A stretch of DNA of 42,498 nucleotides from the NCBI GenBank assembly GCA_964357505.1, contig CAYHLN010000002.1, forward strand, positions 1 to 42,498, in the 5' to 3' direction. The translations under genes and the position numbers were made by a program. The DNA is from Candidatus Woesearchaeota archaeon. Its GTDB lineage: Archaea; Nanobdellota; Nanobdellia; Pacearchaeales; GW2011-AR1. Positions within the stretch are counted from its first letter, which is position 1, and every line of letters starts with the position of its first letter. The notes beneath the pieces were generated by a model. That model was given only the letters and a program-made list of their open reading frames with translations, did not search any database and was not told where the DNA came from. Below are positions 2,764 to 41,210 of the stretch, piece by piece.

Positions 2764-3480
2764 ATGACAGAAAGAAATACCCTAGATAATGCAATAGAGG
2801 ATGCCTATAGAGATAGCTGGCTCAAATATCGTATGGCTTATGCACCCACTCAGGAACTAAGGGCAATTATAGAAAAGGCAGAAAAAGAAGAATTAGATGA
2901 AGCTAAACGGAAAATTATAGAAAATTTTGCAGAAAATCATCAAGGCATAGCCGATGTGGTGAAGGGGAAGGCAACATTTTATTCTTATGGAGGACCAATT
3001 CTAGAACATGTAAAAAATGTTGAAGAACATTATGAGAAGAGAAGATTTGGTTTCGTATCAAGAAGGGCATTATGTGGCAGAGATAGTAATCTTCACACTT
3101 CACGAGCAGCAAGAGACGCTTTTAATTACCTAACAACAGAAAGAATAATCGACTCCGAGAGCTTCTTTACTCCTAAATTAGTTTATCCAGGATCGGCCAC
3201 ATTTGAAAGATGGGTAGAAAATACGATGGGCTATGTAGGAGGAGTTTTATTAGTCTCATCAGCCGTTGCATCAATCGGAGCTTGTAAGGGATATGTTTTG
3301 GGAGAGCAAGATGGAGCTTTCCTAGGGGCAGCTATAGGATTTCTTTTACCGAATCTTATTTTGGGTGTAGGGCTGCCTCTGATAAGTCAAAAATTCTCCC
3401 GGTGTAAAATCTCAAAACAGAGAGAAAGGTTTGAGGCGGCTTTGAAGAGTTTAGATTCTCATATAAGGGGAGATAAATAA
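2764..3480 (+). CDS. Hypothetical protein P1: about 170-aa helical soluble N-domain plus two Gly-rich TM helices (GxxxGxxxG glycine zipper GAFLGAAIG)
   Basis: This 238-aa ORF is the first gene of a coupled operon. Its C-terminus reads MGYVGGVLLVSSAVASIGACKGYVLGEQDGAFLGAAIGFLLPNLILGVGLPLI. I recognise no family motif. Confidence 0.7.
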   Translation: MTERNTLDNAIEDAYRDSWLKYRMAYAPTQELRAIIEKAEKEELDEAKRKIIENFAENHQGIADVVKGKATFYSYGGPILEHVKNVEEHYEKRRFGFVSRRALCGRDSNLHTSRAARDAFNYLTTERIIDSESFFTPKLVYPGSATFERWVENTMGYVGGVLLVSSAVASIGACKGYVLGEQDGAFLGAAIGFLLPNLILGVGLPLISQKFSRCKISKQRERFEAALKSLDSHIRGDK

Positions 3481-3481
3481 T

Positions 3482-3742
3482 ATGACAAGAGATAAACCAA
3501 GTGAATTAGAAGCTATTGGCCCCTTTATAGCACTTAGTCCGATACCTGCTACAGCAATAGGCTTTGTTTTTTCCACCAATGAAAGTATTGGCTATTCAAT
3601 CTTTTACAGCGCAGTGATAGCTTCGGTATACACTCTTATCGCTCTGGTTGGTCCTTTATGTGCGTATCAGGATGAGAAAGAAGCTTACGAAAACGAACGA
3701 AAACGTCGAAAAATATCCGTGCTAGAGGGAAAAATAAAATGA
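3482..3742 (+). CDS. Hypothetical small membrane protein P2 (86 aa, 2 TM, basic/acidic C-tail)
   Basis: It starts 1 nt after the P1 stop. An SD-like GGGGAG lies about 10 nt upstream. It shares a GPLC motif with P3 (LVGPLCAY). Confidence 0.65.
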   Translation: MTRDKPSELEAIGPFIALSPIPATAIGFVFSTNESIGYSIFYSAVIASVYTLIALVGPLCAYQDEKEAYENERKRRKISVLEGKIK

Positions 3743-4056
3743 CTCTTGAAAATGAGTTGCCTGAAAACAGAGTGTTCAGTTCAAGATTAGCATTTGCACT
3801 AAACAGATATCACGAAGTAAACAGGTTTCATCTTGAAAATGGAGCAGAATTACGTAGATCTCCTAACTTTGCAATAAAGGCAATTGGAATTCTTGGGCCA
3901 TTATGTCATATGGCCCTTGCGTATTCTCCGTTAGGACTCGTAGCAATATTAGTAGCAATGGAAGATGCTGAATATTCCGAAAAGAGAGGAGGTTACGTTG
4001 GCAGTACCTTCAATCTTGACAGAGATCCTACAGAAAGCAACGAGGCGGTACAATGA
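3739..4056 (+). CDS. Hypothetical small membrane protein P3 (105 aa, hydrophobic core ILGPLCHMALAYSPLGLVAILVAM)
   Basis: It overlaps P2 by ATGA. An SD-like GAGGGA lies upstream. Confidence 0.65.
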   Translation: MTLENELPENRVFSSRLAFALNRYHEVNRFHLENGAELRRSPNFAIKAIGILGPLCHMALAYSPLGLVAILVAMEDAEYSEKRGGYVGSTFNLDRDPTESNEAVQ

Positions 4057-4415
4057 ACAGAAAAACACAAAATCGCCTGCTAAATGGATCACTGTGGGCA
4101 ATTCCTTGTATGCTTATTGGATCTTACTGTTTTAATATAGGATTAAATGCGTATAGAATAAGTCAATATAGGCAGCTAGGCGAAGGATACAGTGTGCGCG
4201 AGACAGCCTCTGAAAGAATATTTACTCTTGGCAACGGACGCGGAGGTAGAGACTATAATAAAAACGGGACGCTCGATCAAGTTTTTGTGACAATGGCACT
4301 TTCTCCTATGATGGGCGGTCCAGGTTTTGCATCATGGCCGATTAAAACCACCGAAGACGACCTTAAGAGATTCGAACGGGCACATTATTTGCTCAATAAA
4401 AATAAGCAAAAATAA
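4053..4415 (+). CDS. Hypothetical protein P4 (120 aa, N-terminal signal-anchor, extracytoplasmic domain with a DxNxNGxLD Ca-binding-loop-like motif)
   Basis: It overlaps P3 by ATGA. An SD-like GAGGCGG lies upstream. The TM segment is LWAIPCMLIGSYCFNIGL and the motif is RDYNKNGTLDQ. Confidence 0.65.
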   Translation: MNRKTQNRLLNGSLWAIPCMLIGSYCFNIGLNAYRISQYRQLGEGYSVRETASERIFTLGNGRGGRDYNKNGTLDQVFVTMALSPMMGGPGFASWPIKTTEDDLKRFERAHYLLNKNKQK

Positions 4416-6649: not shown

Positions 6650-9600
6650 TTATTCAGATTTTTTCCCCGCACCTTTACGTACTAAGGGGCCAGTCACCTT
6701 TACCAACAGTCCAGGTAATCCAGTTCCGACAGGCACTGGCTGGTTGAGCATGATATTTTCAATAACGGATTCAAGTTCATCTTTTCTGCCTTGAATGGTT
6801 GCATTGATAAATTGTTTATCAGGCGTTTCGAATGCAGCTCGAGCAAAGATACTTGATTTATCAGAGACAATACCCATTCTGGTTACTCCCTTTACAACAC
6901 CAGATGAAGTCATCGCATCGGCAATCAAATCAAGATGTCTGATGTTAATTTCCAATCCCTGTCCTTCAAGAACTTTCTTAATTTCATTCACAATGGTCTG
7001 TCGTGCAGCTTCAATACCAAGCACTTCAGCAGTCTCATGAATATCGTTTGAACTTATTCGATCCCTATCAGCGCCTTTTATCAACAGCGTATCTTTGATA
7101 TTGCTCCCAGAGGTAATAACAACGAATTCCCTGCCTCTATTTGCAACAACAACTTGATTAACGCCTTTGACGCCAGAGACAATTGCTTTCTTGATTTTCT
7201 CTTTAAGCTTGTAAATTTCCTTGAAGCCAAGATCTTGTACTTGAAGCACGATAGAGTTCTCGCGTGCCTTGCAGACGAATCCCTTGTCATTAAGACGATC
7301 AGCGATAGTCTGAGCACCAGCGTGTACGGTGCGCAGCGCATTGCTATCAAGCTCAATCTCAATTTTCTTACCGCCAAAGTCAATGCGTACTTCTCGCGTA
7401 ATTTCCTCAAGCATAACTTCTTTGATTTTCTCAGCAATCACTCGTGCATCCTTTTCATTGTTATACTCCTTATCCAAGTAAACAGTCATCTGAGGTGTTG
7501 AGGGCTTCTTACGAGCGTCAAAGATTTCAATCAAACGAGGTAGTCCAAGCGTAACCTGCATTTCTGCAACTCCCGCAGAGTGGAATGTTCTCAGAACCAT
7601 CTGTGTGGATGCTTCTCCAAAGGATTGTGCAGTTACGACTCCGACGCATTCACCTGGAGGGACTTTCATACCAAGATGCAATCCTGAAACATCGACTCCA
7701 TCTCCGCCATACAAGAATTGAACAATATTTCCAGAGGCATCGCGTACGGTCTCATCATATTCAACTTTCAAGTCTTGTAATGCGCTTACTAAACGGCGAT
7801 ACAAGTAACCAGACTTTGGCGTCCTCAGAGCAGTATCCATCAGAGCGTCTCTTCCAGTAATTGCTCCAAAGAAGAACTCGGTCGGTTTAAGCCCATCAAT
7901 AAAAGAAGATTTGATAAATCCACGAGCTGCCGGTTTCAAATCTCCACGCTCGAAGAATGAGAGGGTACGATTCGTGTATCCAAAGTTGATTCGATGGTCC
8001 CATAGGATTTGCTGACCAACGCAACAGCCAATTTGAGTAATATTTAGTAAGCTTCCTGCAGCGCCTGCAGAGATCATCTTATTGACGTTGCTATCTACAG
8101 GGAAGTTCGTTCGAACAATCTTACTTGCTTCTGTTCTTACCTCGTTTAACGTCTGAGCAATACGCACTTCACGTGATTCTTCCAAGGTCTTTCCTGGAAT
8201 CAACATCAGCTTACCAGAAGCAGCTTCACGGATAATTTCATCTGTTTTATGCTCAGCATCTTTAATGACCTGGTTAGTTAGCTCCTTCATTTTAGCCGGA
8301 ACGTTAAGATCCTGCAATGAGAGTGTGTATCCTTTGCGAGAAAGGTACCAGGTACCAAGTGCAAAAGCGCGTCTAATAGTCTCCAATACTTCTTGGCGTG
8401 AAACTTGCTTATCAAGCGTCTTGATAAGTTCGCCTTCTTCTACTCCAATAGTCGAGCTTCCAATCGAATCAGTAGGAATTTTAACATCAACGCCCTTTGG
8501 CAAGATGTGTGCGAAGATTTCTTTACCATCAATTTCCTTGCCCTTTAAAACCGCGCTCACACCAGAGCTGAAAAGCAATTGGTCAGCATCAGCCTTGCTC
8601 AATGACGACTTACTCAGCAAGTAAACGCCTGTAATTCCATCTGCAATACATCCTACAAGATTAGTATTGTTCTTGGAAGAAATAATGTTGTTCTTCACGT
8701 CCAGCAGCACGGTAGCTTCAGCGCGTGCTTCTTCTGTCTGAGGTGAGTGAATGTTTACTTCATCTCCGTCGAAGTCAGCGTTGTAAGGGAATGCAACTGC
8801 AGGATGGATTCTAAATGTTCTATCAGGCAATACACGCACGTAGTGAGCCATCAGGCTTTGCTTGTGAAGAGAAGGGTGACGATTGAAGAGTACAACATCT
8901 CCATCGCGCAAGTGTCGTTCAACCTTATAGCCTGGCTGAATTTCATTACACAAATCTTCCTTCAGCTCTTCAGCAATACGTTTTTTCTTTCCATCAGGGC
9001 GCACAACATAGTTAGCTCCGGGGTATTTCTCGCCCTGCCTAATAACATCCTTAAGGCTTTCCAAATTAGCAGTAGTCACACTCTCAGAAACAGTAATAAT
9101 ACGAGCAATATCAACAGGCACACCAATTTCATTGATAGCAAGGAACGGATCAGGTGACACGACAGTTCTTCCAGAGAAGTTAACACGCTTTCCGGCAAGG
9201 TTCTTTCTAATACGACCTTCCTTACCCTTAATACGTTCAGTGATCGTTTTTAGCGGCTGTCCTGAGCGATGACGTGCAGGCGGAATGCGAGTGATAGAGT
9301 TATCAAAATAGGTCGTCGTATGGTACTGCAATAAGTCCCATAGATCTTCAATAATAACTTCTGGTGCTCCCGCATTCAAGTTCTCCCAGAGTCGCTGATT
9401 AGCGCGGATAATATCTGAAAGCTTGTGTGTCAAGTCATCTTCGGAACGCTCTCCCGACTCAAGCGTGATCGATGGTCGAACGTTAACGCTCGGCACAATA
9501 AGCTGAGAAAGAATAGCTGATTCAGGTCTACAGGTACTTGGATTTACTCCAACCTTCTTCATCTGCTCGTCTGTAATCTTGAGCAACATCTCACGAATTT

Positions 9601-15501: not shown

Positions 15502-15546
15502 GAAAATATTCTAAATGGGTGCTTTATAAGCATATCGCAAGAAAAA

Positions 15547-15621
15547 TGACCCCGATGGGATTTGAACCCACGACACCTGGATTAAAAGTCCAGTACTCTA
15601 ACCGGGCTGAGCTACGGGGCC
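15547..15621 (-). tRNA. tRNA-Lys (anticodon UUU)
   Basis: The minus strand reads GGCCCCG-TA-GCTC-AGCCCGGTTA-GAGT-A-CTGGA-CTTTTAA-TCCAG-GTGTC-GTGGG-TTCAAAT-CCCAT-CGGGGTC-A. This folds as a full cloverleaf of 75 nt. No CCA is encoded and a T5 tract follows. Confidence 0.93.
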
Positions 15622-15646
15622 ATACGCAAATCAGCGCGAGATGATT

Positions 15647-16050: not shown

Positions 16051-16136
16051 ATACGTTTCTAAAAAGACAGCTTAATAAATCTTATGCATTTTTTAAGATA
16101 ACATAACTTTTTAAATGAAAATTGGTGAATAGTAGT

Positions 16137-16619
16137 ATGAAACAACTACACCTTGGGGCAAAATGGCAATTCCGCATCGGGGGATACTTCGGCTTTGGTT
16201 TTGTAGTTCTATTTTTTGGAATATGGTTAGGATTTACTAGTCTTTTGATTTTTCCTTCAGTATCTTTATTTTTAACTTTAATCATAATTTATCTTATTTT
16301 GGTTATAATATTAACTGAAATTTACACGCAGATGTCATACACAAGATGGTTCTATGAATTTGCCAAAGATGAATTAAAAATAGAGAGGGGAATAATCTGG
16401 AAAAGATATAGCAATGTTCCATATCAGAGAATACAAAACGTTGATATCCAGAGAGGAATTATCGCCAGATTTCTAGGCTTCTCAACCGTAATAGTCCAGA
16501 CGGCGGGCTATTCTGCACCAGCAAGGTATCAAGCAGAAGGATATATCCCTGCAGTAGATATGAAAGAAGCAGAAAATATAAGATCTTTTTTAATGAAAAA
16601 GATTTCTAAACGAAGATAA
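16137..16619 (+). CDS. Membrane protein with a bacterial-PH (YdbS/YdbT-like) domain
   Basis: It has two N-terminal TM helices followed by ...ELKIERGIIWKRYSNVPYQRIQNVDIQRGIIARFLGFSTVIVQTAG. I place the start at the first ATG (16137), which has a TTTTTAAAT box about 25 nt upstream. The track ORF starts at a TTG at 16122. Confidence 0.75.
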   Translation: MKQLHLGAKWQFRIGGYFGFGFVVLFFGIWLGFTSLLIFPSVSLFLTLIIIYLILVIILTEIYTQMSYTRWFYEFAKDELKIERGIIWKRYSNVPYQRIQNVDIQRGIIARFLGFSTVIVQTAGYSAPARYQAEGYIPAVDMKEAENIRSFLMKKISKRR

Positions 16620-22658: not shown

Positions 22659-25600
22659 TTATTCCCCGCAACCAGAACGTGACGTCTGCTTACAACTTGT
22701 ACAGACAATAGCGCAATTCCCAATACGCTGGGCAGGTCCACCACACAAAGGACACAACAAGCCCTCTTGTAATCCAAAGTCTTTAATCGTCTTCTGCTCA
22801 TCTTTTGAATCATCAAATGCCTCAAGCTCGAACTCAACCTTCCCTGCGCTGCCGCTAAAGTGATTGAGCATGAACTGCGCTACATAGTCAACAATCGAGC
22901 TTGCAGTTCTAATCTTAGATACACGCTCATCAACTTCTCCGCCCTGAATGTTCTTTACAAATCCCGATGGCTCAAACTTCTGATGTCTGAACTTATTGAA
23001 AAGCACTTCAACAGGAATACCATACTGCAAGTTCAACGATACAGAGGTTGCCCAGGTATCCATAAGCCCACGGATAGTAGAGCCTTCCTTGCTCATGGTC
23101 ACGAAAATCTCTCCTGGTTTACCATCATCGTACAAGCCAACCGTCAAATAACCCTTATGCCCTGCAATTTCAAAGCGGTGCGTAATAGCCTTACGTGTTT
23201 GAGGCATATCTCTCTGGCGCACCGTCACAAGCTGATTATCTTTCTTGACCATCTCGCCTTCAGTCTTCTTCGTATTAAGCGGCTGGCTGCGCTTACTATT
23301 CTCTCGATAAATAGCAACTGCCTTCAGTCCCTGCTCCCAGGAAAAGATATACGCATCCATAATATCTTCAACAGTCGAGTGCTCAGGCATATTGACCGTC
23401 TTGCTAATCGCACCAGAGATAAACGGCTGACTTACTGCCATCATCTTGATATGCCCTTTGTAATGGATTGCACGCTTTCCTTTCCCGGGCTTAAAGGCGC
23501 AATCAAACACTCCAAGGTGCTCATCACGCAACGCTGGTGCACCTTCAATCATATCATTCTTATCAATATAGTCAATGATATCAGTAATCTCCATATCGCT
23601 ATAGCCCAATGTCCTCAGCGCCAAAGGTACACTTTGATTCACAATCTTCAGCATGCCTCCGCCAGACAGCACCTTGTACTTAACCAGCGCAATATCTGGC
23701 TCAATGCCCGTTGTGTCACAATCCATCATAAACGCGATAGTATTATGACTGATAAAACCATTAGCAGTATATGTAACATTTTCTGGAACAGAAATATCGT
23801 ACGTTGGTTGCACCCCGCCATCAATGTTAGAACCTATGACATCGTAGAAAAACTGAAGTGCCCACAAAAGTTGAGGATGCTTAGTGTCCTGATAGAGTTG
23901 AATCGCTCTTTCTCGTGGAATCGCATGATGCCTCTTCAAAGACAACAAAACAGTATCGCGATATTTGCTCCCCACAGGTACCGCTTCTTCAATAATCTCT
24001 TCAGGTAAATACACATAATCTCTCTTGCCAGTCTGCGAACTGCGCGATGCGACTGCATCGGTCTTCCTTGCCCCCATGAAACCAATTGCCTCCAAGAACA
24101 GTTTATTGTACGAAATATTTTTCAGCCTCATCACATAAACAGGGGCTGCCCCATATCCCGAAACATTCTCTTTTGTAGAAGTAGGGTAGCCAAGGCTTAA
24201 AAGCAACGTTCTAATTTCGCCAGCAAATTCCTTACTTGCAGTACAGATGGAAGGATTCCCGAGCCCAACAGTTCCGTCAGCTTCAAAAAGCCCCCTCAAA
24301 AACGCGCCATAAATTTTCCTATCGTTGGTGCATAATATAGAATCTGGAATATGGGGGGTATAACCCTTGCCAGAATGGCTTTCAGAAGGTCTCAACTTAG
24401 AAAATCCGCAGGCATCCCACCACATAGTCAAGGGAACAGAATGAACAGCGACTTCCTTGTATCCCTCCTTCTGCGACAGATGAATCCCCAGATTAAAGAC
24501 AGATGTAACAAGCTGTCTCAACCGTTCAACAACATCCTCATCCTTATTATCAACGCAAAATCGTAGCCCCTTGCTATGGAGACTCCCATCACCCATAAAG
24601 TAGCCAATAAGCTCTGCAAGTTCAGCAGTCATTTTTTTAGGCGTCACCAAGTTAAAGTCAGTATTCCAATGCAGTTCTGGAGCTGGAGGCAAGAGCACGT
24701 CTTGCTCATCGCCAAAAATAGTATTCATGGCCAAAGGAACAACATCTCCTTCCTGGATTTCATCAAATCTCTTCCAAGTCCATTGCCTTGTTTCAGCATC
24801 CACGATCTTTACTTTATGTTTCTCCGTTCCCTGGATTTCATATCCTGAAGAAGTCACGATTTTTCTCGTGCTCGCTTCTCCGTTAATATAAAATTTCGTC
24901 GCCTCCTTTGGACCCTCGTCAGTCATCACCTTAAAAGAGACATCTTGCCATTGGTTACCTTTTTTATTTCCCAGACTCCGTAGCCTTACAAGTCCCTTAT
25001 TCGTAGAAATCAGGGAACTCTCAACAAGGCATCCTGTTGGTGCCAGTACACTTGCTTGCGCATTCCGGTACCCATGCTTCTCGCCCAACGTCACGGCCTC
25101 GCTCCAACAATCCCATGCATCATTCGCCAAATAACGCAGTTCAGAAGGCATTTTATTGACTTCAATCTTCTTCACCGCATCACGATGCATGCGCATGACT
25201 TCAAGCATTGGTTCCTTATTCTTCATGTAGCCTGGGAACGGCCCCACAGCGCGAGCAATCTCTGCAGACATCCGATATGCCTCACCACACATAATAGCAG
25301 TCAATGCCGCAGCCACAGCTCGCCCTTCATCAGAATCATAGGGCAACCCATAGCTCATCAATAACGCTCCAAGATTAGCATATCCCAAACCAAGCGGCCG
25401 GAAGTCGTGAGAGTTACGCGCAATCTTCTGAGTCGGATAACTTGCGCCATCAACAATCAAATCCATAGCCAGAATAAATGTGCGCACCACACTCTTGTAT
25501 TTCTCAACGTCAAACTTGCCATCTTCAGTTCTAAATTTCATTAAATTGATCGACGCCAAATTACAAGCAGAATCATCAAGGTGCATATATTCACTGCACG

Positions 25601-26795
25601 GATTACTTGCATTGATTCGTCCGCTATTTTTTACAGTATGCCACTCGTTAATAGTCGTATCAAATTGCATTCCAGGGTCACCACAAATATAGGTACCTTC
25701 AGCAATCTTTCGCATCACTTCACGAGCCTTGAACGTCTCACACGTTGCGCCGCCATACACATACTTGGTCTGCCACTCACCATCACTCTTGACAGCCTCC
25801 ATGAAGGAATCAGTAGCCCGTACAGACATATTACAATTCTGATAGCTAATACTTGCATACGCCTCTCCATTCATACCTCCATCATATCCTTGCTCAATAA
25901 GCGCCCAAGCTTTTTTCTCTTCTTTAGACTTAGACTCAATAAATTCAATAATATCCGGATGGTCTATATTCAAGATCTCCATCTTTGCAGCCCTTCTTGT
26001 TTTACCACCAGACTTAATGACAGAAGCGTACGCATCATACCCTTTCATGAATGATACCGGTCCGGAAGCGCGTCCGCCGCCAGTCAGCCGCTCCTTGGAG
26101 CTTCGTAGTGGTGATCGATTTGATCCTGTACCAGAACCTGCCTTGAACAAGTTTGCTTCAGCCACTTGTACTTCCATAATAGATTCCATATTATCTTGAA
26201 CGCTTTGGATGAAGCACGCTGAGCATTGCGGCCGATTCATTGTTTTCACCGAGTGAATGATCGTATCAGTTGGAGCATCCCACACATACGCAGATACGCC
26301 ACCAGCCTGCGGATTATATTCCTGAATACCCACGTTAAACCAGACAGGCGAATTAAACACGGAAAGCTGATTCAAACAAATAGCAGCAACCTCATCTCTG
26401 AAAGCATTTGCTTGCTCTTCAGTTAAATAACGCTGCAAGACTCCTTGGACGCCCATCCATCTCGCAATACGACCAACAAGCTGCTCAATAGAATTCTCAC
26501 GTTCGCCCTTTAACTGATCTCCCCAGAAGTACCTTCCAGCAACTACTTTGATCGCAAGTGGCGACCAAAAGTCTGGTCGACGAACAGCAGGCTGAGTAAA
26601 GATGACTTTTCCCATATCATCTGTCACTTTAACATCTTCAGAAATCCATTTGATAGGATTACCTACAATATCAAGCTCAAAGGGACTCTTTCCATGTCGC
26701 GTGAAGAAACGCTCATACTTCAGAGGCTCAAAATGCATCCCAGACAGCTGCGCACGCTCTGGCGACTCGTCATTAGCAAAATGTTGTCCGTTCAT
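22659..26795 (-). CDS. nrdJ: Class II (adenosylcobalamin-dependent) ribonucleotide reductase, intein-containing precursor
   Basis: The active-site motif SNPCSEY is present. The APTG|...|TIAFMMDCDTTGIEPD motif is interrupted by the intein. A C-terminal CPLCGG...CTSC zinc ribbon is present. The exteins total 948 aa. Confidence 0.93.
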   Translation of the reverse strand: MNGQHFANDESPERAQLSGMHFEPLKYERFFTRHGKSPFELDIVGNPIKWISEDVKVTDDMGKVIFTQPAVRRPDFWSPLAIKVVAGRYFWGDQLKGERENSIEQLVGRIARWMGVQGVLQRYLTEEQANAFRDEVAAICLNQLSVFNSPVWFNVGIQEYNPQAGGVSAYVWDAPTDTIIHSVKTMNRPQCSACFIQSVQDNMESIMEVQVAEANLFKAGSGTGSNRSPLRSSKERLTGGGRASGPVSFMKGYDAYASVIKSGGKTRRAAKMEILNIDHPDIIEFIESKSKEEKKAWALIEQGYDGGMNGEAYASISYQNCNMSVRATDSFMEAVKSDGEWQTKYVYGGATCETFKAREVMRKIAEGTYICGDPGMQFDTTINEWHTVKNSGRINASNPCSEYMHLDDSACNLASINLMKFRTEDGKFDVEKYKSVVRTFILAMDLIVDGASYPTQKIARNSHDFRPLGLGYANLGALLMSYGLPYDSDEGRAVAAALTAIMCGEAYRMSAEIARAVGPFPGYMKNKEPMLEVMRMHRDAVKKIEVNKMPSELRYLANDAWDCWSEAVTLGEKHGYRNAQASVLAPTGCLVESSLISTNKGLVRLRSLGNKKGNQWQDVSFKVMTDEGPKEATKFYINGEASTRKIVTSSGYEIQGTEKHKVKIVDAETRQWTWKRFDEIQEGDVVPLAMNTIFGDEQDVLLPPAPELHWNTDFNLVTPKKMTAELAELIGYFMGDGSLHSKGLRFCVDNKDEDVVERLRQLVTSVFNLGIHLSQKEGYKEVAVHSVPLTMWWDACGFSKLRPSESHSGKGYTPHIPDSILCTNDRKIYGAFLRGLFEADGTVGLGNPSICTASKEFAGEIRTLLLSLGYPTSTKENVSGYGAAPVYVMRLKNISYNKLFLEAIGFMGARKTDAVASRSSQTGKRDYVYLPEEIIEEAVPVGSKYRDTVLLSLKRHHAIPRERAIQLYQDTKHPQLLWALQFFYDVIGSNIDGGVQPTYDISVPENVTYTANGFISHNTIAFMMDCDTTGIEPDIALVKYKVLSGGGMLKIVNQSVPLALRTLGYSDMEITDIIDYIDKNDMIEGAPALRDEHLGVFDCAFKPGKGKRAIHYKGHIKMMAVSQPFISGAISKTVNMPEHSTVEDIMDAYIFSWEQGLKAVAIYRENSKRSQPLNTKKTEGEMVKKDNQLVTVRQRDMPQTRKAITHRFEIAGHKGYLTVGLYDDGKPGEIFVTMSKEGSTIRGLMDTWATSVSLNLQYGIPVEVLFNKFRHQKFEPSGFVKNIQGGEVDERVSKIRTASSIVDYVAQFMLNHFSGSAGKVEFELEAFDDSKDEQKTIKDFGLQEGLLCPLCGGPAQRIGNCAIVCTSCKQTSRSGCGE
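23742..25031 (-). mobile_element. Intein (430 aa) with a LAGLIDADG homing-endonuclease domain
   Basis: It starts with Cys (G|CLVESSLIS) and has block B GTEKHKV. The two LAGLIDADG motifs are LIGYFMGDGSL and LRGLFEADGTV. It ends ...NGFISHN|T, so the +1 residue is Thr. It is in frame, and its removal restores APTG-TIAF. Confidence 0.9.
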
Positions 26796-28785: not shown

Positions 28786-29164
28786 ATTCCAACGTGCAGC
28801 CGCTCAACTCGCTCAACTGCTGAAAATCCTTTTGCCCATAAGAGAACTGACCATCTAACTCCCACGCAGGCAATGAAGCCAGATTACCACATGCGAGCGC
28901 ATCGCACGACACAATTTCAATCAGATCTAACGCACGAGGGGCAAACAGCTTCTCCTGCTGCAAACACTCTGCACAGTCGCTCTTCAAATACAACACGGCA
29001 CCATGATCATTCAAGCAATGCACAAATCGAATCTGCTGGTCCTCTCCCAATGCGTAACCAGTTGTTTTGGAAAACCAATCAGTAAATACATACAAGCCAG
29101 CAATCAGCACAATCAAAACGCCAAAGGTAAGAAACGTCTTAGTGCTTGATTTCATTACTCTCAA
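28769..29164 (-). CDS. Membrane-anchored thioredoxin-fold/glutaredoxin-like protein (CxxC)
   Basis: An N-terminal TM (FLTFGVLIVLIAGLYVF) is followed by LYLKSDCAECLQQEKLF. It overlaps the desulfurase start by 17 nt. Confidence 0.6.
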   Translation of the reverse strand: MRVMKSSTKTFLTFGVLIVLIAGLYVFTDWFSKTTGYALGEDQQIRFVHCLNDHGAVLYLKSDCAECLQQEKLFAPRALDLIEIVSCDALACGNLASLPAWELDGQFSYGQKDFQQLSELSGCTLEYEPVS

Positions 29165-29207
29165 GGAACTAGGACAAATTTAAATCTATGCTGCAGCCCA
29201 TTATTAA

Positions 29208-29351
29208 ATGACAAATTTTGATGATCCCAAGATAAAGGAAATGATAGAAAAGCACCGTGAAGTTTTTGAAGATCTAGAATATTATGATAGGACAAGAATT
29301 AAGCGTTGGGAATTAAGAAAGAAAAAAAGAAGAGAATATAAGAAAACCTAA
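29208..29351 (+). CDS. Small basic hypothetical protein (47 aa)
   Basis: Translation is MTNFDDPKIKEMIEKHREVFEDLEYYDRTRIKRWELRKKKRREYKKT. The ORF is below the track cutoff and I found no convincing signals, so this is weak. Confidence 0.3.
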   Translation: MTNFDDPKIKEMIEKHREVFEDLEYYDRTRIKRWELRKKKRREYKKT

Positions 29352-29392
29352 TCTATCAGAACATTTATAAAAAGAACTCCGCTGGGTAAGCT

Positions 29393-29947
29393 ATGGCTGT
29401 ATTCCTCTGGATTATTCTTGCACTCATTGCACTCGTAGTAATTATCTTCATTTACTACTACAATAAGTTCGTTGTGCTAGCTAATCGCATTGACAACTCG
29501 CTTTCCCAAATAGATGTTCAGCTCAAGAAGCGTGCAGATTTAGTGCCAAACTTGATCAACACAGTCAAGGGATATGCAAAACACGAGAAAGAAATCATGA
29601 AAGACGTCACTGATGCGCGTAAGGCGCTTGTATCAGCAAAAACCATTGACGCTAAAGTAAAAGCTGGCTCAGAACTACAAGCAGCACTACGATCAGTATT
29701 CGCTATTGCAGAAAACTACCCTCAATTGAGAGCAAATGAAAACTTCCTACACTTACAGCAAGAACTAGCTGCAATTGAAGATAAAGTAGCCTATGCACGT
29801 CAATATTATAATGACTCAATCCTTAGCTACAATAACATGGTAGAAACCTTCCCTGGAACGTTCTTTGCAGGAATCTATGGTCATAAAGAACGCGAGTTCA
29901 TCGAAATAGCTCCTGAAGAGCGCGCAGTGCCAAAAGTTAGCTTTTGA
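29393..29947 (+). CDS. lemA: LemA family protein
   Basis: An N-terminal TM is followed by YNKFVVLANRIDNSLSQIDVQLKKRADLVPNLINTVKGYAKHEKE...NYPQLRANENFLHLQ. A TTTATAAAA box lies about 25 nt upstream. Confidence 0.9.
   Translation: MAVFLWIILALIALVVIIFIYYYNKFVVLANRIDNSLSQIDVQLKKRADLVPNLINTVKGYAKHEKEIMKDVTDARKALVSAKTIDAKVKAGSELQAALRSVFAIAENYPQLRANENFLHLQQELAAIEDKVAYARQYYNDSILSYNNMVETFPGTFFAGIYGHKEREFIEIAPEERAVPKVSF
29924..29943 (+). repeat. Direct repeat copy 1 (gcagtgccaaaagttagctt), last codons of lemA
   Basis: It is a perfect 20-bp match to 30778-30797. It encodes AVPKVSF followed by a stop. Confidence 0.9.
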
Positions 29948-29988
29948 ATAAAAAGATGGTTTTTTATAGTTAGTTAAAATATATTAAT

Positions 29989-30732
29989 ATGAGAAAAGAC
30001 ACTCTCCAAACAGCCTTAATAATCATATGCATTTCTATTTTTATTTTTGACTTTGCGTTCTATAATAATCAAGGATACATCGATTCCTTACACAAGTCTC
30101 TAAAAATAGTAATATCACTAGCTTTAGCGGTCATTCTACCACTCACTATTTTTAAAAATTTTATTTGGAGAATTTTATCATGCATACTAATTCTCATTCC
30201 GCTAACAATATTTGGAATGTGGTGGACTAATTATCCAGACGCGGGGCCTCTTGTATTTATTTTTTATTACGCACCATTAGTTTTTATTCTAGTCATTTTA
30301 GGGCATTTTACACTTAAATTATTGGAAAATTCTCCTAAACCAAAAAAATGGGCCATCGTTCTAATAATTGTTTTTATAGGCTTATTTATTTTAGCAGTCT
30401 TGAATATCTCAAGCGGTCTTGCAGACCTAGAAAGAGCCGAACTCTCTGAAAGACAAAAAGAATGTAATAGCTATATGAGTTCAGAAGAATTATCAAGTAA
30501 TTGCGCAAGACTAAAAGAATTAAATTTAGAAGAATACTATTTTAAGCTTGCTTGTGGCGAAAACTATCCTGACAAAGAATTTTGGAGGGTCTTTGCTTTT
30601 GATGATAACGGAACAGGCCATGAGGTAAGTCGTCCAAGAAACAACAATTTAGAAGAAAAAGAACAATGTTTTTCTAAAGTCAGAGAAAGATTCTCTTTTT
30701 TCAGACCAAGAGATTATATCTATAGTTATTAA
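29989..30732 (+). CDS. Hypothetical polytopic membrane protein (247 aa) with a Cys-containing soluble C-domain, carried on an AT-rich cassette
   Basis: It has about 6 hydrophobic segments. Its own TTTTTATAG box lies about 24 nt upstream. Two hand-counted 60-nt lines give 27-30% G+C, against 45% for one lemA line. Confidence 0.7.
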   Translation: MRKDTLQTALIIICISIFIFDFAFYNNQGYIDSLHKSLKIVISLALAVILPLTIFKNFIWRILSCILILIPLTIFGMWWTNYPDAGPLVFIFYYAPLVFILVILGHFTLKLLENSPKPKKWAIVLIIVFIGLFILAVLNISSGLADLERAELSERQKECNSYMSSEELSSNCARLKELNLEEYYFKLACGENYPDKEFWRVFAFDDNGTGHEVSRPRNNNLEEKEQCFSKVRERFSFFRPRDYIYSY

Positions 30733-30777
30733 TTGTTTATGATTGAATATTATATTTTCAACCAATAATTAGAAAAA

Positions 30778-30797
30778 GCAGTGCCAAAAGTTAGCTT
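30778..30797 (+). repeat. Direct repeat copy 2 (gcagtgccaaaagttagctt), orphan lemA 3'-end remnant
   Basis: It is identical to 29924-29943. It also reads AVPKVSF-stop (ttc taa versus ttt tga), but an in-frame stop lies 4 codons upstream. Confidence 0.9.
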
Positions 30798-30893
30798 CTA
30801 ATGAAACATGCTGTAGTTGCCATTATCTCAAAGCACAAATACGCTCACTAAAGCTCTAGCCTATGATACGGATTTTCGTTGAGCAGTACATCT

Positions 30894-31346
30894 TCATTTA
30901 AGTTGCTTTTCTTCAAAAAGACCCGTTTTTAATCCGTAAATCGTATGTACAATTCGGGTAATAATAAGCGCCGTGAGATAAGAAAAAATAAATGAGGCAG
31001 CACGTTCAAACCCAAAAAGAACCATCAAAGAGTAATCAGTAGAAGTTGCAAGAATGAAAAACAGGAATGCCAAGAAAACGCGGTGTCCCTGAAGAAGCCC
31101 GTAATCTCTGAAAAAAAGTTGCAATTGGCTATTCCGATAATTTGCATACCAATGCAGACCCCAAAATAAAAGACCGTCAATAAGCGCATCAATAAAAAAT
31201 GCAGAAAGTAAAATAAAAGCTATTGAGTGGTTCATACGACTTACCACCATAACAGGATATGCTGCAAGAAGGGTCGCAACCGCACTAGCAAGGAAAATAT
31301 TAAAATTAATATTGATGATTCTTTTTTTATAGAGTAAAGATACCAT
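30894..31346 (-). CDS. Hypothetical membrane protein (150 aa, about 4 TM)
   Basis: It is a hydrophobic ORF 6 nt downstream of the rhodanese gene. Confidence 0.6.
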   Translation of the reverse strand: MVSLLYKKRIININFNIFLASAVATLLAAYPVMVVSRMNHSIAFILLSAFFIDALIDGLLFWGLHWYANYRNSQLQLFFRDYGLLQGHRVFLAFLFFILATSTDYSLMVLFGFERAASFIFSYLTALIITRIVHTIYGLKTGLFEEKQLK

Positions 31347-31352
31347 GTTAAA

Positions 31353-32225
31353 TTAAGAAGAATGCCAACGCTTTTTAGATTCCTCAAAGCAAGCCGTTGA
31401 GCAACATCCTTGATGTTCATCCTTGCAACCTGGGCAAACAATAATCTGTTCATTACACTTCACGTTGCGACAATTACTGTATAAGTCGCAATCTTTTTGA
31501 CAATGTATGCAACAAGTAATGGGGTTTTCCTCATTGCCAACCCGTGAAACCATTCGATTGTCAAATACAAAACAAGAGCCCTCCCAGACAGTGTTCGGCT
31601 TCTGCTGGCAGAACGTCAAGATCCCGCCATGAAGCTGGCTAACATCAGCAAACCCGTGCTCCTTCATGTAAGCAGATGCTTTCTCACATCGAATGCCGCC
31701 CGTACAGTAGATGACCACCTTCTTATTCTTCAAATGCTCTAGCTTCTCAATGGCCTTGGGAAACTCACGAAAGTTCTTAATCGGTAACGTTAATGCATTC
31801 TTGAACTTGCCCACACGCCATTCATAATCATTACGAGTATCCAAAATAAGAGTGTTTGGATCATCACAGGCGCTCAAAAAATGATCCGGCTCAATATACG
31901 CTCCTCGTTTATTCATATCAACGCTCACGTCCATGCGGATAATCTCTTTCTTCACACGTACTAACATGCGCCTAAAGGGCGCAAACGTCCCCAGCTCTTC
32001 CTTAAAAACAATATCCGCAAAGCGCTTATCTGCCCAAAGATGTTTCTTGTATGCCTCGATCTGCTCCCTAGTACCAGAGATAGAACCATTAATGCCTTCT
32101 TTTCCAATAAGCACCTTTCCTAAAACTCCCAGCTTTTTACAGTAAGCCAGATGTTCGTCCCTAAAGCGCTTAAGCCGCGTTAAGGACACGAACTTGTAGA
32201 AGAGTATAATATGCAGATCGTCCAT
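31353..32225 (-). CDS. trhO: Rhodanese-domain protein of the UPF0176/YceA (TrhO, tRNA U34 hydroxylase) family
   Basis: It begins ILFYKF and has the rhodanese active-site loop YCTGGIRCEKAS. A Cys-rich C-terminus is present. A TTATAAAA box lies about 26 nt upstream. Confidence 0.8.
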   Translation of the reverse strand: MDDLHIILFYKFVSLTRLKRFRDEHLAYCKKLGVLGKVLIGKEGINGSISGTREQIEAYKKHLWADKRFADIVFKEELGTFAPFRRMLVRVKKEIIRMDVSVDMNKRGAYIEPDHFLSACDDPNTLILDTRNDYEWRVGKFKNALTLPIKNFREFPKAIEKLEHLKNKKVVIYCTGGIRCEKASAYMKEHGFADVSQLHGGILTFCQQKPNTVWEGSCFVFDNRMVSRVGNEENPITCCIHCQKDCDLYSNCRNVKCNEQIIVCPGCKDEHQGCCSTACFEESKKRWHSS

Positions 32226-33832: not shown

Positions 33833-34735
33833 ATGGCTGAACGCATATCATTTGAAGATCAAATCACTAAAAATAAGATAAAATCCTGGATTTTGATAGC
33901 AGTAGTCCTTGTCTTCTTCATAGCACTAGGCTACATCATCGCCCTCGTCGTAGATCCAAGCTATTTCTTTATCATCATGATTGTCTCCATTATATTCTCC
34001 CTTGGATATACGCTCATCAGTTACTATAACTCACACAAGATTGCGCTTGCTTCAGTTCGAGCCAAGCCAGCATCGCCAAGCCAGCATCGAACATTCTTCA
34101 TAGCAGCAGAGAACATGGCTCTTGCGTCAGGCTTGCCGGTGCCAAAGCTCTATGTCATGGAATCGAGCGAGATCAACGCATTTGCATCAGGCCGCGACCC
34201 ACAGCATGCAATTATCTGCGTCACCACAGGCACGCTTGAAAAGCTCACGAAGCAAGAGCTTGAAGGAGTTATTGCACATGAAATGTCACATATTGCAAAC
34301 TTCGATATTCGCTACATGACGCTCACTGCCGTCCTGATTGGTATGATCTCCATTATCGCTGAAATGTTCTTACGCACGATGTGGATCTCCAGCTCAGGCG
34401 AGCGCGAAGGCCGAGCAGGCGCCATTTTACTCATTATCGGACTTCTCTTCGCGATTCTTGCGCCTATCGCAGCAAATCTCGTGCAGCTAGCCATTTCTCG
34501 TAAAAGAGAGTATCTTGCCGATGCAACAGGTGTCAAGCTTACACGCTACCCCCCAGGCCTTGCTAGCGCGCTAAAGAAGATTAAACATGAGCACGTTTCA
34601 ACGCAAGAACTCAAACGATTTAATCATGCGCTCGCACCACTCTTCATTTCAGATCCATTCAAGCGCAATCTCAAGGGCTTGTTCGCCACGCACCCCGATA
34701 TTAATGAAAGAATTAGGCGCCTTGAAGCAATGTAA
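33833..34735 (+). CDS. htpX: HtpX-like M48 zinc metalloprotease
   Basis: The HEMSHI motif and 4 TM segments are present. The C-terminus reads THPDINERIRRLE. Confidence 0.92.
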   Translation: MAERISFEDQITKNKIKSWILIAVVLVFFIALGYIIALVVDPSYFFIIMIVSIIFSLGYTLISYYNSHKIALASVRAKPASPSQHRTFFIAAENMALASGLPVPKLYVMESSEINAFASGRDPQHAIICVTTGTLEKLTKQELEGVIAHEMSHIANFDIRYMTLTAVLIGMISIIAEMFLRTMWISSSGEREGRAGAILLIIGLLFAILAPIAANLVQLAISRKREYLADATGVKLTRYPPGLASALKKIKHEHVSTQELKRFNHALAPLFISDPFKRNLKGLFATHPDINERIRRLEAM

Positions 34736-40103: not shown

Positions 40104-40146
40104 CTTTCCATTAATGTTATTATTAAGTAGTAACATAATAAGAAGG

Positions 40147-40377: not shown

Positions 40378-40815
40378 ATGACCGAACAAACACTTCGTAT
40401 TTACTTAGAACAAAGATTAGGAATAAAAGCCAATGATGCAGAAGAAACTAAAATAAGTGAGCTACTTTCAAGAATGTGTGAGAATGAAGCGGAAGCTGGA
40501 AATCATCTTGGTGCAAAACACTTAGGAAATATTACTCTAATTTTAGGATCCGAAGAGCAAAGACGTAAGACCTTAGAAATATTTGAAATCCCAATAGATC
40601 GCAAATATGCCATTGCTGATTTAGTCCGCGAATACATGATAGAACAAGAATATGACACATTTGAAACAATAGCTGGAGAAATTAGCCCCAATTGTAGATG
40701 GGATGAATATTTTAACGACCAAGGAGAAAGAAGAAGAGTTGAATTTATACGTAATTTTAATCTACTAAAAGCAGATAATCTAAAAATTCAATTATTTGAA
40801 ATGGAGAAAGAATGA
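40378..40815 (+). CDS. Hypothetical acidic soluble protein Q2 (145 aa)
   Basis: An SD GGAGG lies about 12 nt upstream. The N-terminus MTEQTLRIYLEQRLGIKA resembles that of Q3. Confidence 0.65.
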   Translation: MTEQTLRIYLEQRLGIKANDAEETKISELLSRMCENEAEAGNHLGAKHLGNITLILGSEEQRRKTLEIFEIPIDRKYAIADLVREYMIEQEYDTFETIAGEISPNCRWDEYFNDQGERRRVEFIRNFNLLKADNLKIQLFEMEKE

Positions 40816-41210
40816 CACAAACACTAGAAGACTATCTTTCAAGAATTAAAGGGCTCAATGTAAAAGCAAAAAACATTTCAGATGAGTTAGATATAGTCAG
40901 AACCGTAAATAAAACAAGAAAAAGAGAAGGCCTTCCTCAAGGACCAAGAGATTCTTTTATGACTCAGGAAGATATGACTATTTCGGGTAGCGAATTTATG
41001 ATTGGGTTTCTCAAGAATTATGTTACTAATTATATGAATTCGGTAGGATACAACAAGGCAAAAGACGATGAAGATTCTAGAGACAATGAAATATGGTATA
41101 GTCCAATGGACACTAGAAATAGACCAAAATTAATAACTATCCTAGAAACCTCTGAAACAGAAAGAGACCTCTGTCTCGTAGAATATCTAGGAAGTCATGC
41201 TCCTAAATAA
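40812..41210 (+). CDS. Hypothetical soluble protein Q3 (132 aa), possible distant paralogue of Q2
   Basis: It overlaps Q2 by ATGA. An SD-like GGAGAAAG lies upstream. The N-terminus is MTQTLEDYLSRIKGLNVKA. Confidence 0.65.
   Translation: MTQTLEDYLSRIKGLNVKAKNISDELDIVRTVNKTRKREGLPQGPRDSFMTQEDMTISGSEFMIGFLKNYVTNYMNSVGYNKAKDDEDSRDNEIWYSPMDTRNRPKLITILETSETERDLCLVEYLGSHAPK

Follow-up and report, generated by a model that had tools for sequence, protein, structure and literature searches.

An 854-bp single-gene unit inserted at the 3′ end of lemA in a Candidatus Woesearchaeota chromosome and bounded by copies of a 20-bp gene terminus

The DNA analysed here, referred to as the window, comprises the 42,498 bases at positions 1 to 42,498 (forward strand) of contig CAYHLN010000002.1 in the assembly GCA_964357505.1 of a Candidatus Woesearchaeota archaeon, sampled from Hainich groundwater well H41 (0.1-µm fraction). 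In this window the conserved gene lemA is followed by an 854-bp unit which carries a single gene, p247, encoding a putative membrane protein, and which is bracketed by two exact copies of a 20-mer, the first of them formed by the last codons of lemA. The insertion of the unit at the 3′ end of lemA, with the end of the gene regenerated, is well supported, because p247 is absent from the lemA locus of about 80 relatives, lemA directly abuts the next gene in one of them, the G+C content of the unit is an outlier, and both copies of the repeat carry a complete Phe codon and stop. An earlier note, made from the sequence alone, had interpreted the locus as a site-specific insertion into a gene 3′ end; the insertion and the regenerated end are upheld by the relatives, the base composition and the two Phe-stop termini, while no recombinase was found to account for site specificity. 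Integration of the att type (Campbell-type, att × att), by a crossover in the 20-bp core, is assigned about an even chance.

The 20-mer GCAGTGCCAAAAGTTAGCTT occurs exactly twice in the window (Table 1). No third match was found there even when up to three mismatches were allowed, and a third copy of the core, which would be a sign of tandem integrations, was not found. Two matches were seen in none of 100 dinucleotide-preserving shuffles. A repeat scan of the whole window identified this pair as the sole one that brackets a gene at short range, and revealed no longer exact match in any other listed repeat family. Both copies read AVPKVSF followed directly by a stop, with the ending TTT TGA in copy 1 and TTC TAA in copy 2. 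The latter is orphaned, its in-frame reading being TAA-L-E-K-A-V-P-K-V-S-F-TAA, with the first TAA (30766-30768) located four codons ahead of the GCA of the orphan. The earlier note had described the two exact copies, their common reading and the orphaned state of the second, and each of these descriptions is confirmed by exact matching, by the shuffles and by the reading frame. The lemA-like reading of the orphan extends beyond the core and spans 10 codons, with E-K provided by the six bases before the core and the completion of Phe and the stop by the four bases after it. In relatives, the lemA termini have the form E-[RK]-A-V-P-K-V-x-F-stop. The orphan is therefore a 10-codon lemA terminus and not just a repeat of 20 bases, which argues against a plain target-site duplication.

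Table 1. Features of the lemA 3′ region and its neighbourhood (positions in the window)
Feature	Position	Strand	Description
lemA, target gene	29393..29947	+	intact, 184 aa, ends ...EERAVPKVSF TGA; Pfam LemA
Direct repeat copy 1, attL-like core	29924..29943	+	in the last lemA codons; exact 20-mer
Left arm of insert, 45 nt	29944..29988	+	third Phe base and new TGA for lemA; two small T-run hairpins; TTTTTTATAG
p247, cargo gene	29989..30732	+	247 aa; five predicted membrane helices; C-terminal domain of about 80 aa with 4 Cys
Right arm of insert, 45 nt	30733..30777	+	non-coding; last 6 nt GAAAAA = E-K in the orphan frame
Orphan lemA terminus	30772..30801	+	EKAVPKVSF-stop (TTC TAA); 24/30 bases as in the terminus of lemA itself
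Direct repeat copy 2, attR-like core	30778..30797	+	exact 20-mer; junction also in L001 and L084
Spacer right of copy 2	30798..30893	.	39.6% G+C, near-native; begins CTAATGAAAC, ancestral-looking after-lemA sequence
p150, small membrane protein	30894..31346	-	150 aa; outside the repeat-bounded unit; begins 6 nt past the rhodanese stop
Rhodanese/UPF0176 gene	31353..32225	-	Pfam; conserved convergent neighbour of lemA in the clade
htpX-like M48 peptidase gene	33833..34735	+	Pfam Peptidase_M48; conserved partner of lemA, far edge of the variable interval

The arrangement is not an assembly artefact, a case that the earlier note had considered, because three further assemblies reproduce it. A contig of a separate ENA assembly (L001, 2985 bp) is 100% identical over positions 28934-31918 and spans both copies of the repeat, and one junction each is covered by a contig from a third assembly (L084, comprising copy 2 and the right flank at 99.9% identity) and by a Logan contig (L002, comprising copy 1 and the first part of p247).

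The lemA open reading frame (ORF) matches the Pfam family LemA (PF04011) with an E value of 6e-56 and a score of 188.9 bits (cutoff 26.2), covering profile positions 2-149 of 149, and its product is 62-85% identical to LemA of Nanoarchaeota genomes (Woesearchaeota/Pacearchaeota, DPANN), by which the window is assigned to this group. The gene stays full-length, with the last base of its final codon, TT|T, and the TGA stop coming from the arm of the insert.

Between the repeat copies a single ORF is present, with 45 non-coding nucleotides on each side. The G+C content of the 854-bp unit is 29.9%, compared with 42.4% in the window as a whole and 41% in lemA, and lies below that of every other stretch of 854 nt in the window, which bears out the AT-richness pointed out earlier. 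The G+C content at third codon positions (GC3) is 0.25 in p247, 0.38 in lemA and 0.38 on average in the ORFs of the window (sd 0.08); the low value of p247 is not unique, three other ORFs of the window being as low or nearly so. The TATA-like sequence TTTTTTATAG at 29960-29969 lies 20-29 nt upstream of the cargo ATG, where a TATA box would be placed in an archaeal gene transcribed without a leader, and may therefore act as the promoter of p247. Of the earlier statement that the unit holds one gene with its own TATA box, the single ORF and the presence of the motif stand, and a promoter function is suggested by the position of the motif. The sole ORF matches no recombinase family, in agreement with the reported absence of an integrase from the unit. 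Single-strand folding gave a z score of -2.3 for the left region (29900-29988), and z scores of -0.1 and -0.9, no better than shuffles, for the right end (30733-30812). Terminal inverted repeats were not found in the unit, the best end-to-end match being 10 of 12 bases in AT-rich sequence, and the core itself contains no T-run and no strong hairpin of its own.

Across the Nanoarchaeota relatives the conserved frame of the locus is p131(-), lemA(+), htpX(+). The gene p247 was found at the lemA locus in none of about 80 relatives, and neither was p150; the relatives thus do not share the arrangement, contrary to a possibility that the earlier note had left standing. In L098, whose LemA is 84% identical, lemA and the convergent rhodanese gene meet directly and overlap by 4 nt, and in L003, whose LemA is 85% identical, an unrelated 127-aa ORF lies between the two genes. 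Since the insert is lacking in the former and a different ORF is present in the latter, the region between lemA and the rhodanese gene gained genes independently in each lineage.

The position of the putative crossover is suggested by a comparison of the two termini, which differ at none of the 20 core positions and at six of the ten flanking ones (four between GAGCGC and GAAAAA, two between T-TGA and C-TAA). The core holds six synonymous third positions, none of which is changed between the copies. Among 1953 natural pairs of lemA termini the core differs by about 6 bases on average and is identical in 6 pairs, and among the 920 pairs with at least four flank differences an identical core occurs in one. 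An identical core between diverged flanks is so rare in natural pairs that two independently diverged alleles are unlikely as the source of the two termini, and the pattern favours a crossover inside the core (att-type, Campbell-like). The sequence that follows copy 2, CTAATGAAAC, resembles what follows lemA in relatives, namely CTAATGAAAG in L053, CTAATGAAGA in L022 and CTAAT in L098, the relatives sharing CTAAT(GAAA) after lemA. After copy 1 comes TTGAATAAAA, found at this place in none of the relatives. The right flank of copy 2 thus looks like the ancestral after-lemA sequence.

In the proposed mechanism, an 854-bp unit consisting of a promoter-bearing gene for a five-helix membrane protein and a 30-nt mimic of the lemA terminus would have entered the chromosome by a single reciprocal crossover within the 20 bp common to the mimic and the real lemA 3′ end. 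The chromosomal site attB would have been ...GAGCGC + core + CTAATG..., and the attP site of the unit ...TTAGAAAAA + core + TTGAATAAAA..., with the observed attL and attR as the products. The empty-site (attB) junction is predicted to be GAAGAGCGCGCAGTGCCAAAAGTTAGCTTCTAATGAAACATGC and the circle (attP) junction AATAATTAGAAAAAGCAGTGCCAAAAGTTAGCTTTTGAATAAAAAGATGG, and the pre-insertion lemA end would have read ER...TTC TAA, followed by TGAAACATGC. Such an event would have kept lemA intact with an element-derived last base and stop, TTT TGA replacing TTC TAA, and would have moved the former stop and what lay downstream of it beyond the insert, behind the orphan EKAVPKVSF-stop. A recombinase, most plausibly a tyrosine integrase, would have acted in trans or been lost as a larger element decayed to one gene. 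We infer the circular intermediate, the enzyme, and the direction and time of the event. On this view the unit would be the one surviving gene of an integrated element that has otherwise decayed, or else a non-autonomous cassette mobilised in trans. In a streamlined genome, a remnant and a cassette could equally show so compact an arrangement (45 nt, ORF, 45 nt, core). A bolder version, which we hold to be improbable and which has this one locus as its sole positive support, is that the unit is a functional minimal circularisable one-gene cassette with its own promoter, with a gene-end mimic as attachment site and with its recombinase encoded elsewhere; the lemA-htpX interval would then be a landing platform resembling an integron without attC in DPANN archaea.

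A number of results weigh against att-type integration. No integrase, transposase, reverse transcriptase or other recombinase is encoded by any ORF of the 42.5-kb window. We know of no described autonomous integrative element that is not far larger than 854 bp. The relatives of p247 sit in other chromosomal contexts, and none was found in IMG/VR or in the phage and plasmid collections. The closest relative of the locus, L003, has EK...TTC TAA like the orphan, and therefore the polarity cannot be fixed from the flanks alone and the orphan could equally be the resident tail. The earlier note had proposed looking for an empty-site allele, for further copies of the 20-mer bordering other cassettes and for circular excision junctions. 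Scans of public metagenome and viral assemblies with the 20-mer and the left arm gave none of these. In metagenome contigs the exact 20-mer was found at the same filled site (L084) and in one chance match within GC-rich coding sequence on an unrelated contig (L083, 1485-1504), with no empty site or circle junction; viral contigs contained neither the exact 20-mer nor the left-arm sequence. The nearest approach to an empty site is L098, with lemA directly abutting the rhodanese gene. A same-species comparison is impossible because the closest LemA is 85% identical, no other LemA at 85-100% identity being present among 5.8 billion protein clusters. A second lemA-targeting insertion with an orphan end was not found in 918 kb of related loci, so that there is no sign of a lemA-targeting element family; in the same loci the orphan peptide motif has no other case outside true lemA ends, and a search for orphan ends by DNA match in relatives gave at best 19 of 24 bases, which is the level of chance.

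The main competing explanation is homology-facilitated illegitimate recombination. Here lemA+p247 DNA from a related strain would have recombined homologously in or upstream of lemA, and its right end would have been joined illegitimately, immediately ahead of the final 26-30 nt of the lemA already present, so that the orphan would be the resident tail and no site-specific enzyme would be required. The orphan (GAAAAA...TTC TAA) is like L003 at both flanks (26 of 30 bases), strain-level swaps of cargo anchored in lemA do occur (L099 and L100, see below), and an integrase was found neither in the unit nor in the window. However, alleles with 6/10 flank differences should differ at about 6/20 core positions, and a shared core was seen in 1 of the 920 natural pairs; moreover, lemA has a native-like GC3 (0.38) and p247 does not (0.25). 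This explanation is disfavoured, and we judge it possible but unlikely. A target-site duplication, produced by a transposase, by a casposase-like enzyme or by fill-in at a staggered break of 20 nt in which foreign DNA was captured, would likewise yield a short insert flanked by a direct repeat without an integrase, and Cas1-type casposases generate duplications of 14-15 bp at gene 3′ ends. It is nevertheless very improbable, as the unit has no terminal inverted repeats, no transposase is present, and the in-frame E-K and F-stop beyond the 20 bp would remain unexplained, their coincidence being roughly estimated at about 1e-4.

The compact layout of the unit, with one ORF, 45-nt arms and one recombination site, also recalls a gene cassette of the integron type, placed there by an integron integrase. 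Both GTTAGCT in the core and TTTCAAC upstream agree at 6 of 7 positions with the consensus of integron core sites, Nanoarchaeota are reported to have integrons as well as attC clusters without an integrase (PMC9668308 for archaeal integrons), and one relative of p247, P0006, is surrounded by small ORFs on the same strand, by toxin-antitoxin genes and by long palindromic repeats. Against a cassette of this type stand the absence of an attC-like hairpin 3′ of the ORF (z scores of -0.1 and -0.9), the absence of an intI gene, a cassette array or repeated sites from the window, the putative promoter carried by the unit, and the fact that integron recombination duplicates only the 7-bp core site and not 20-30 bp of a host gene; hardly any credence can be given to it. 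A reading with no insertion at all, in which the two copies match by chance, stem from a chimeric assembly or represent one functional motif, such as a terminator or regulatory site, that recurs downstream of each gene, is scarcely credible and is largely refuted. The match in L083 demonstrates that the 20-mer can recur by chance at the scale of metagenome collections, but two copies were never obtained in the shuffles of the window, four assemblies agree on the arrangement, relatives lack the gene, the orphan keeps the reading frame of a lemA terminus, and the core has neither a T-run nor a strong hairpin.

The unit can be compared with several known systems. Gene capture by the decay of integrated elements in archaeal chromosomes, leaving integrase-less remnants, was reportedly described by She et al. 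in Nature in 2001. Cargo-only remnants are also reported for the tycheposons of Prochlorococcus islands (bioRxiv 10.1101/2020.12.28.424599). The unit resembles both kinds of remnant in the lack of an integrase, the retention of att repeats, the presence of one or few cargo genes and the location in a recurrent hotspot, whereas theirs are described as having tRNA-gene targets, arrays and recognisable relatives, and the target here is lemA and the unit a singleton. The integrated elements of mesophilic archaea have a median att length of 17 bp, and 14 of 68 are located in 3′-distal regions of protein genes; they are multigene and nearly all carry an integrase (Krupovic et al. 2019, PMC6563490, where casposon targets are also treated). 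Like the cryptic elements of mesophilic archaea, the unit has a short direct repeat (20 bp) with one copy in the 3′ end of a protein gene, replaces the gene end and stop by element sequence, and is of foreign composition. Unlike them, it has a length of 854 bp, one gene and no integrase, and the one approach to an empty site comes from a relative at the level of a different genus.

Archaeal integrons include those of Nanoarchaeota (Ghaly et al. 2022, PMC9668308). With integron cassettes the unit shares the sub-kilobase size, the single ORF, the one recombination site and the lack of its own recombinase, but it differs from them in having no attC hairpin, attI, intI or array, in its putative promoter and in the duplication of 20-30 bp of a host gene end. 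The features of transposons, insertion sequences and casposons are not seen, as neither terminal inverted repeats nor a transposase or casposase were found. Integrative mobile elements exploiting Xer recombination (IMEX) use host Xer recombinases at dif, a site made of two 11-bp inverted arms around a 6-bp spacer. As in these elements, repeats of a host site flank an integrated unit that lacks its own recombinase; however, the repeat is a gene terminus and not a dif site, and nothing ties XerA to the lemA site. The only symmetry in the reconstructed attP is the 6-bp inverted repeat AAAAGC(N14)GCTTTT, and xerA is not among the genes of the window. We conclude that the unit belongs, as a small example, to a class already known, that of integrated remnants or cassettes with att flanks, and that the most economical account of it is a further instance of gene capture of the integrase type. 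DPANN archaea combine very small genomes with great variation in membrane and surface proteins, and the routes by which these are acquired are poorly documented; the locus represents a clean, base-resolved example of one gene added at the end of a conserved gene without damage to that gene. If the unit were mobile in its one-gene form, it would represent a new, very small kind of cassette.

The product of p247 fits the earlier description of a polytopic membrane protein with a Cys-containing C-domain, as far as the predicted helices and the cysteines (Table 1) allow. Homology and structure searches, as proposed in the earlier note, provided distant relatives and no known fold. In a word-indexed search of 5.8 billion protein clusters the protein matched itself only, and an exhaustive HMMER search of 1.84 billion representatives retrieved six distant relatives with 21-32% identity (E 3e-18 to 5e-5). 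The family alignment contains a conserved membrane core with the motif WWTxYxDxGPLxFIxYY, in addition to the Cys-containing C-terminal domain. A single-sequence structure model was poor; the AlphaFold2 model obtained from the alignment consists of five long helices and a small mixed domain (predicted local distance difference test score, pLDDT, 76), and had no match in the PDB at an E value of 0.001 or better. The sole Pfam match is to the membrane protein family DUF4401 and is sub-threshold (E 0.0011, 18.9 bits against a cutoff of 30.4), and no match was found in PHROGs or NCBIfam. Two of the relatives are encoded a few kilobases from an S19e/L31e block, and P0006 is encoded amid small ORFs, PIN/MazE toxin-antitoxin genes and a PF05635 protein. 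Thus, p247 is a real gene of a small DPANN-type family, with no function assigned and no link to lemA elsewhere.

The surroundings of two of these relatives contain repeats of their own. Near P0006, long internally palindromic repeats of 59-89 nt and 98-100% identity lie between small same-strand ORFs (L093, 1635-1723 and 3028-3116; L092, 1-59 and 291-349, with an inverted partner at 2340-2356), and they may represent an attC-like array or one resembling miniature inverted-repeat transposable elements. The PF05635 protein prompted a consideration of a diversity-generating retroelement, which was rejected, as no reverse transcriptase and no similarity upstream of the orphan were found. In L096, a 45-nt direct repeat (7509-7553 and 8247-8291, spacing 738 bp) with an exact stretch of 15 nt (GTTACACTTTTAAAC) brackets the gene for the relative P0007. 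Its copies span the promoter and start of this gene and of the next one, and the promoter may have been duplicated along with an insertion.

The interval between lemA and htpX is a recurrent insertion hotspot across Nanoarchaeota. In 62 genomes it ranges from 2 bp to 4.6 kb, being at most 100 bp in 14 of them, and its contents vary by lineage, including the convergent rhodanese gene, a 205-aa protein, an HD protein and others. In the window it also includes p150, which is probably co-transcribed with the rhodanese gene, since its start lies 6 nt past the rhodanese stop. Only two homologues of p150 were found (56% and 49% identity), on unrelated contigs and each followed by a DoxX_2-like gene; p150 is an acquisition separate from the unit. 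The contigs L099 and L100 encode one and the same LemA protein, and over the 3382 bp that end with the lemA stop their identity is 99.9%. Beyond it (regions 4029-6536 of L099 and 3359-3916 of L100) the cargo is unrelated, with 2417 bp and two minus-strand genes in L099 and 467 bp and a NUDIX gene in L100, after which identity returns exactly at the TATA box of the next gene. No repeat is present, and two of the three mismatches fall within the last 130 nt of lemA; therefore no site-specific inference was drawn, and the pair was rejected as an instance of the same crossover point, the placement of the mismatches fitting ordinary homologous replacement of a flexible island.

On the other side of lemA, the divergent intergenic region that separates it from p131 (29165-29392) is AT-rich and 228 nt long, compared with 83 nt in L003 and L098, and contains a lysine-rich ORF of 47 aa (29208-29351) with no counterpart in relatives. 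This ORF region is a second small lineage-specific addition beside lemA.

The window as a whole represents ordinary core chromosome, encoding ribosomal proteins S7 and S12, IMP dehydrogenase, ribonucleotide reductase, a class I tRNA synthetase and enzymes of purine synthesis. Its only tRNA gene, for Lys-UUU (15546-15622, minus strand), lies beside an AT-rich stretch that includes a gene for a bPH_2-domain membrane protein (16122-16619, G+C 0.34), and no integrase or tRNA-fragment repeat was seen. The ORFs at 40378-41210 have no Pfam match and the lowest GC3 of the window (0.19 and 0.25), the first of them being bracketed by a 16-nt inverted repeat (40124-40139 and 41017-41032); those at 2764-4415 likewise have no Pfam match, with GC3 of 0.27-0.35, and both groups may be further foreign genes. 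The class II ribonucleotide reductase (22659-26795, minus strand, 1378 aa) contains at residues ~603-1018 an intein with a LAGLIDADG homing-endonuclease domain, recognised by its matches to the Pfam families Intein_splicing and LAGLIDADG_3, and this intein is the one clearly selfish element in the window.

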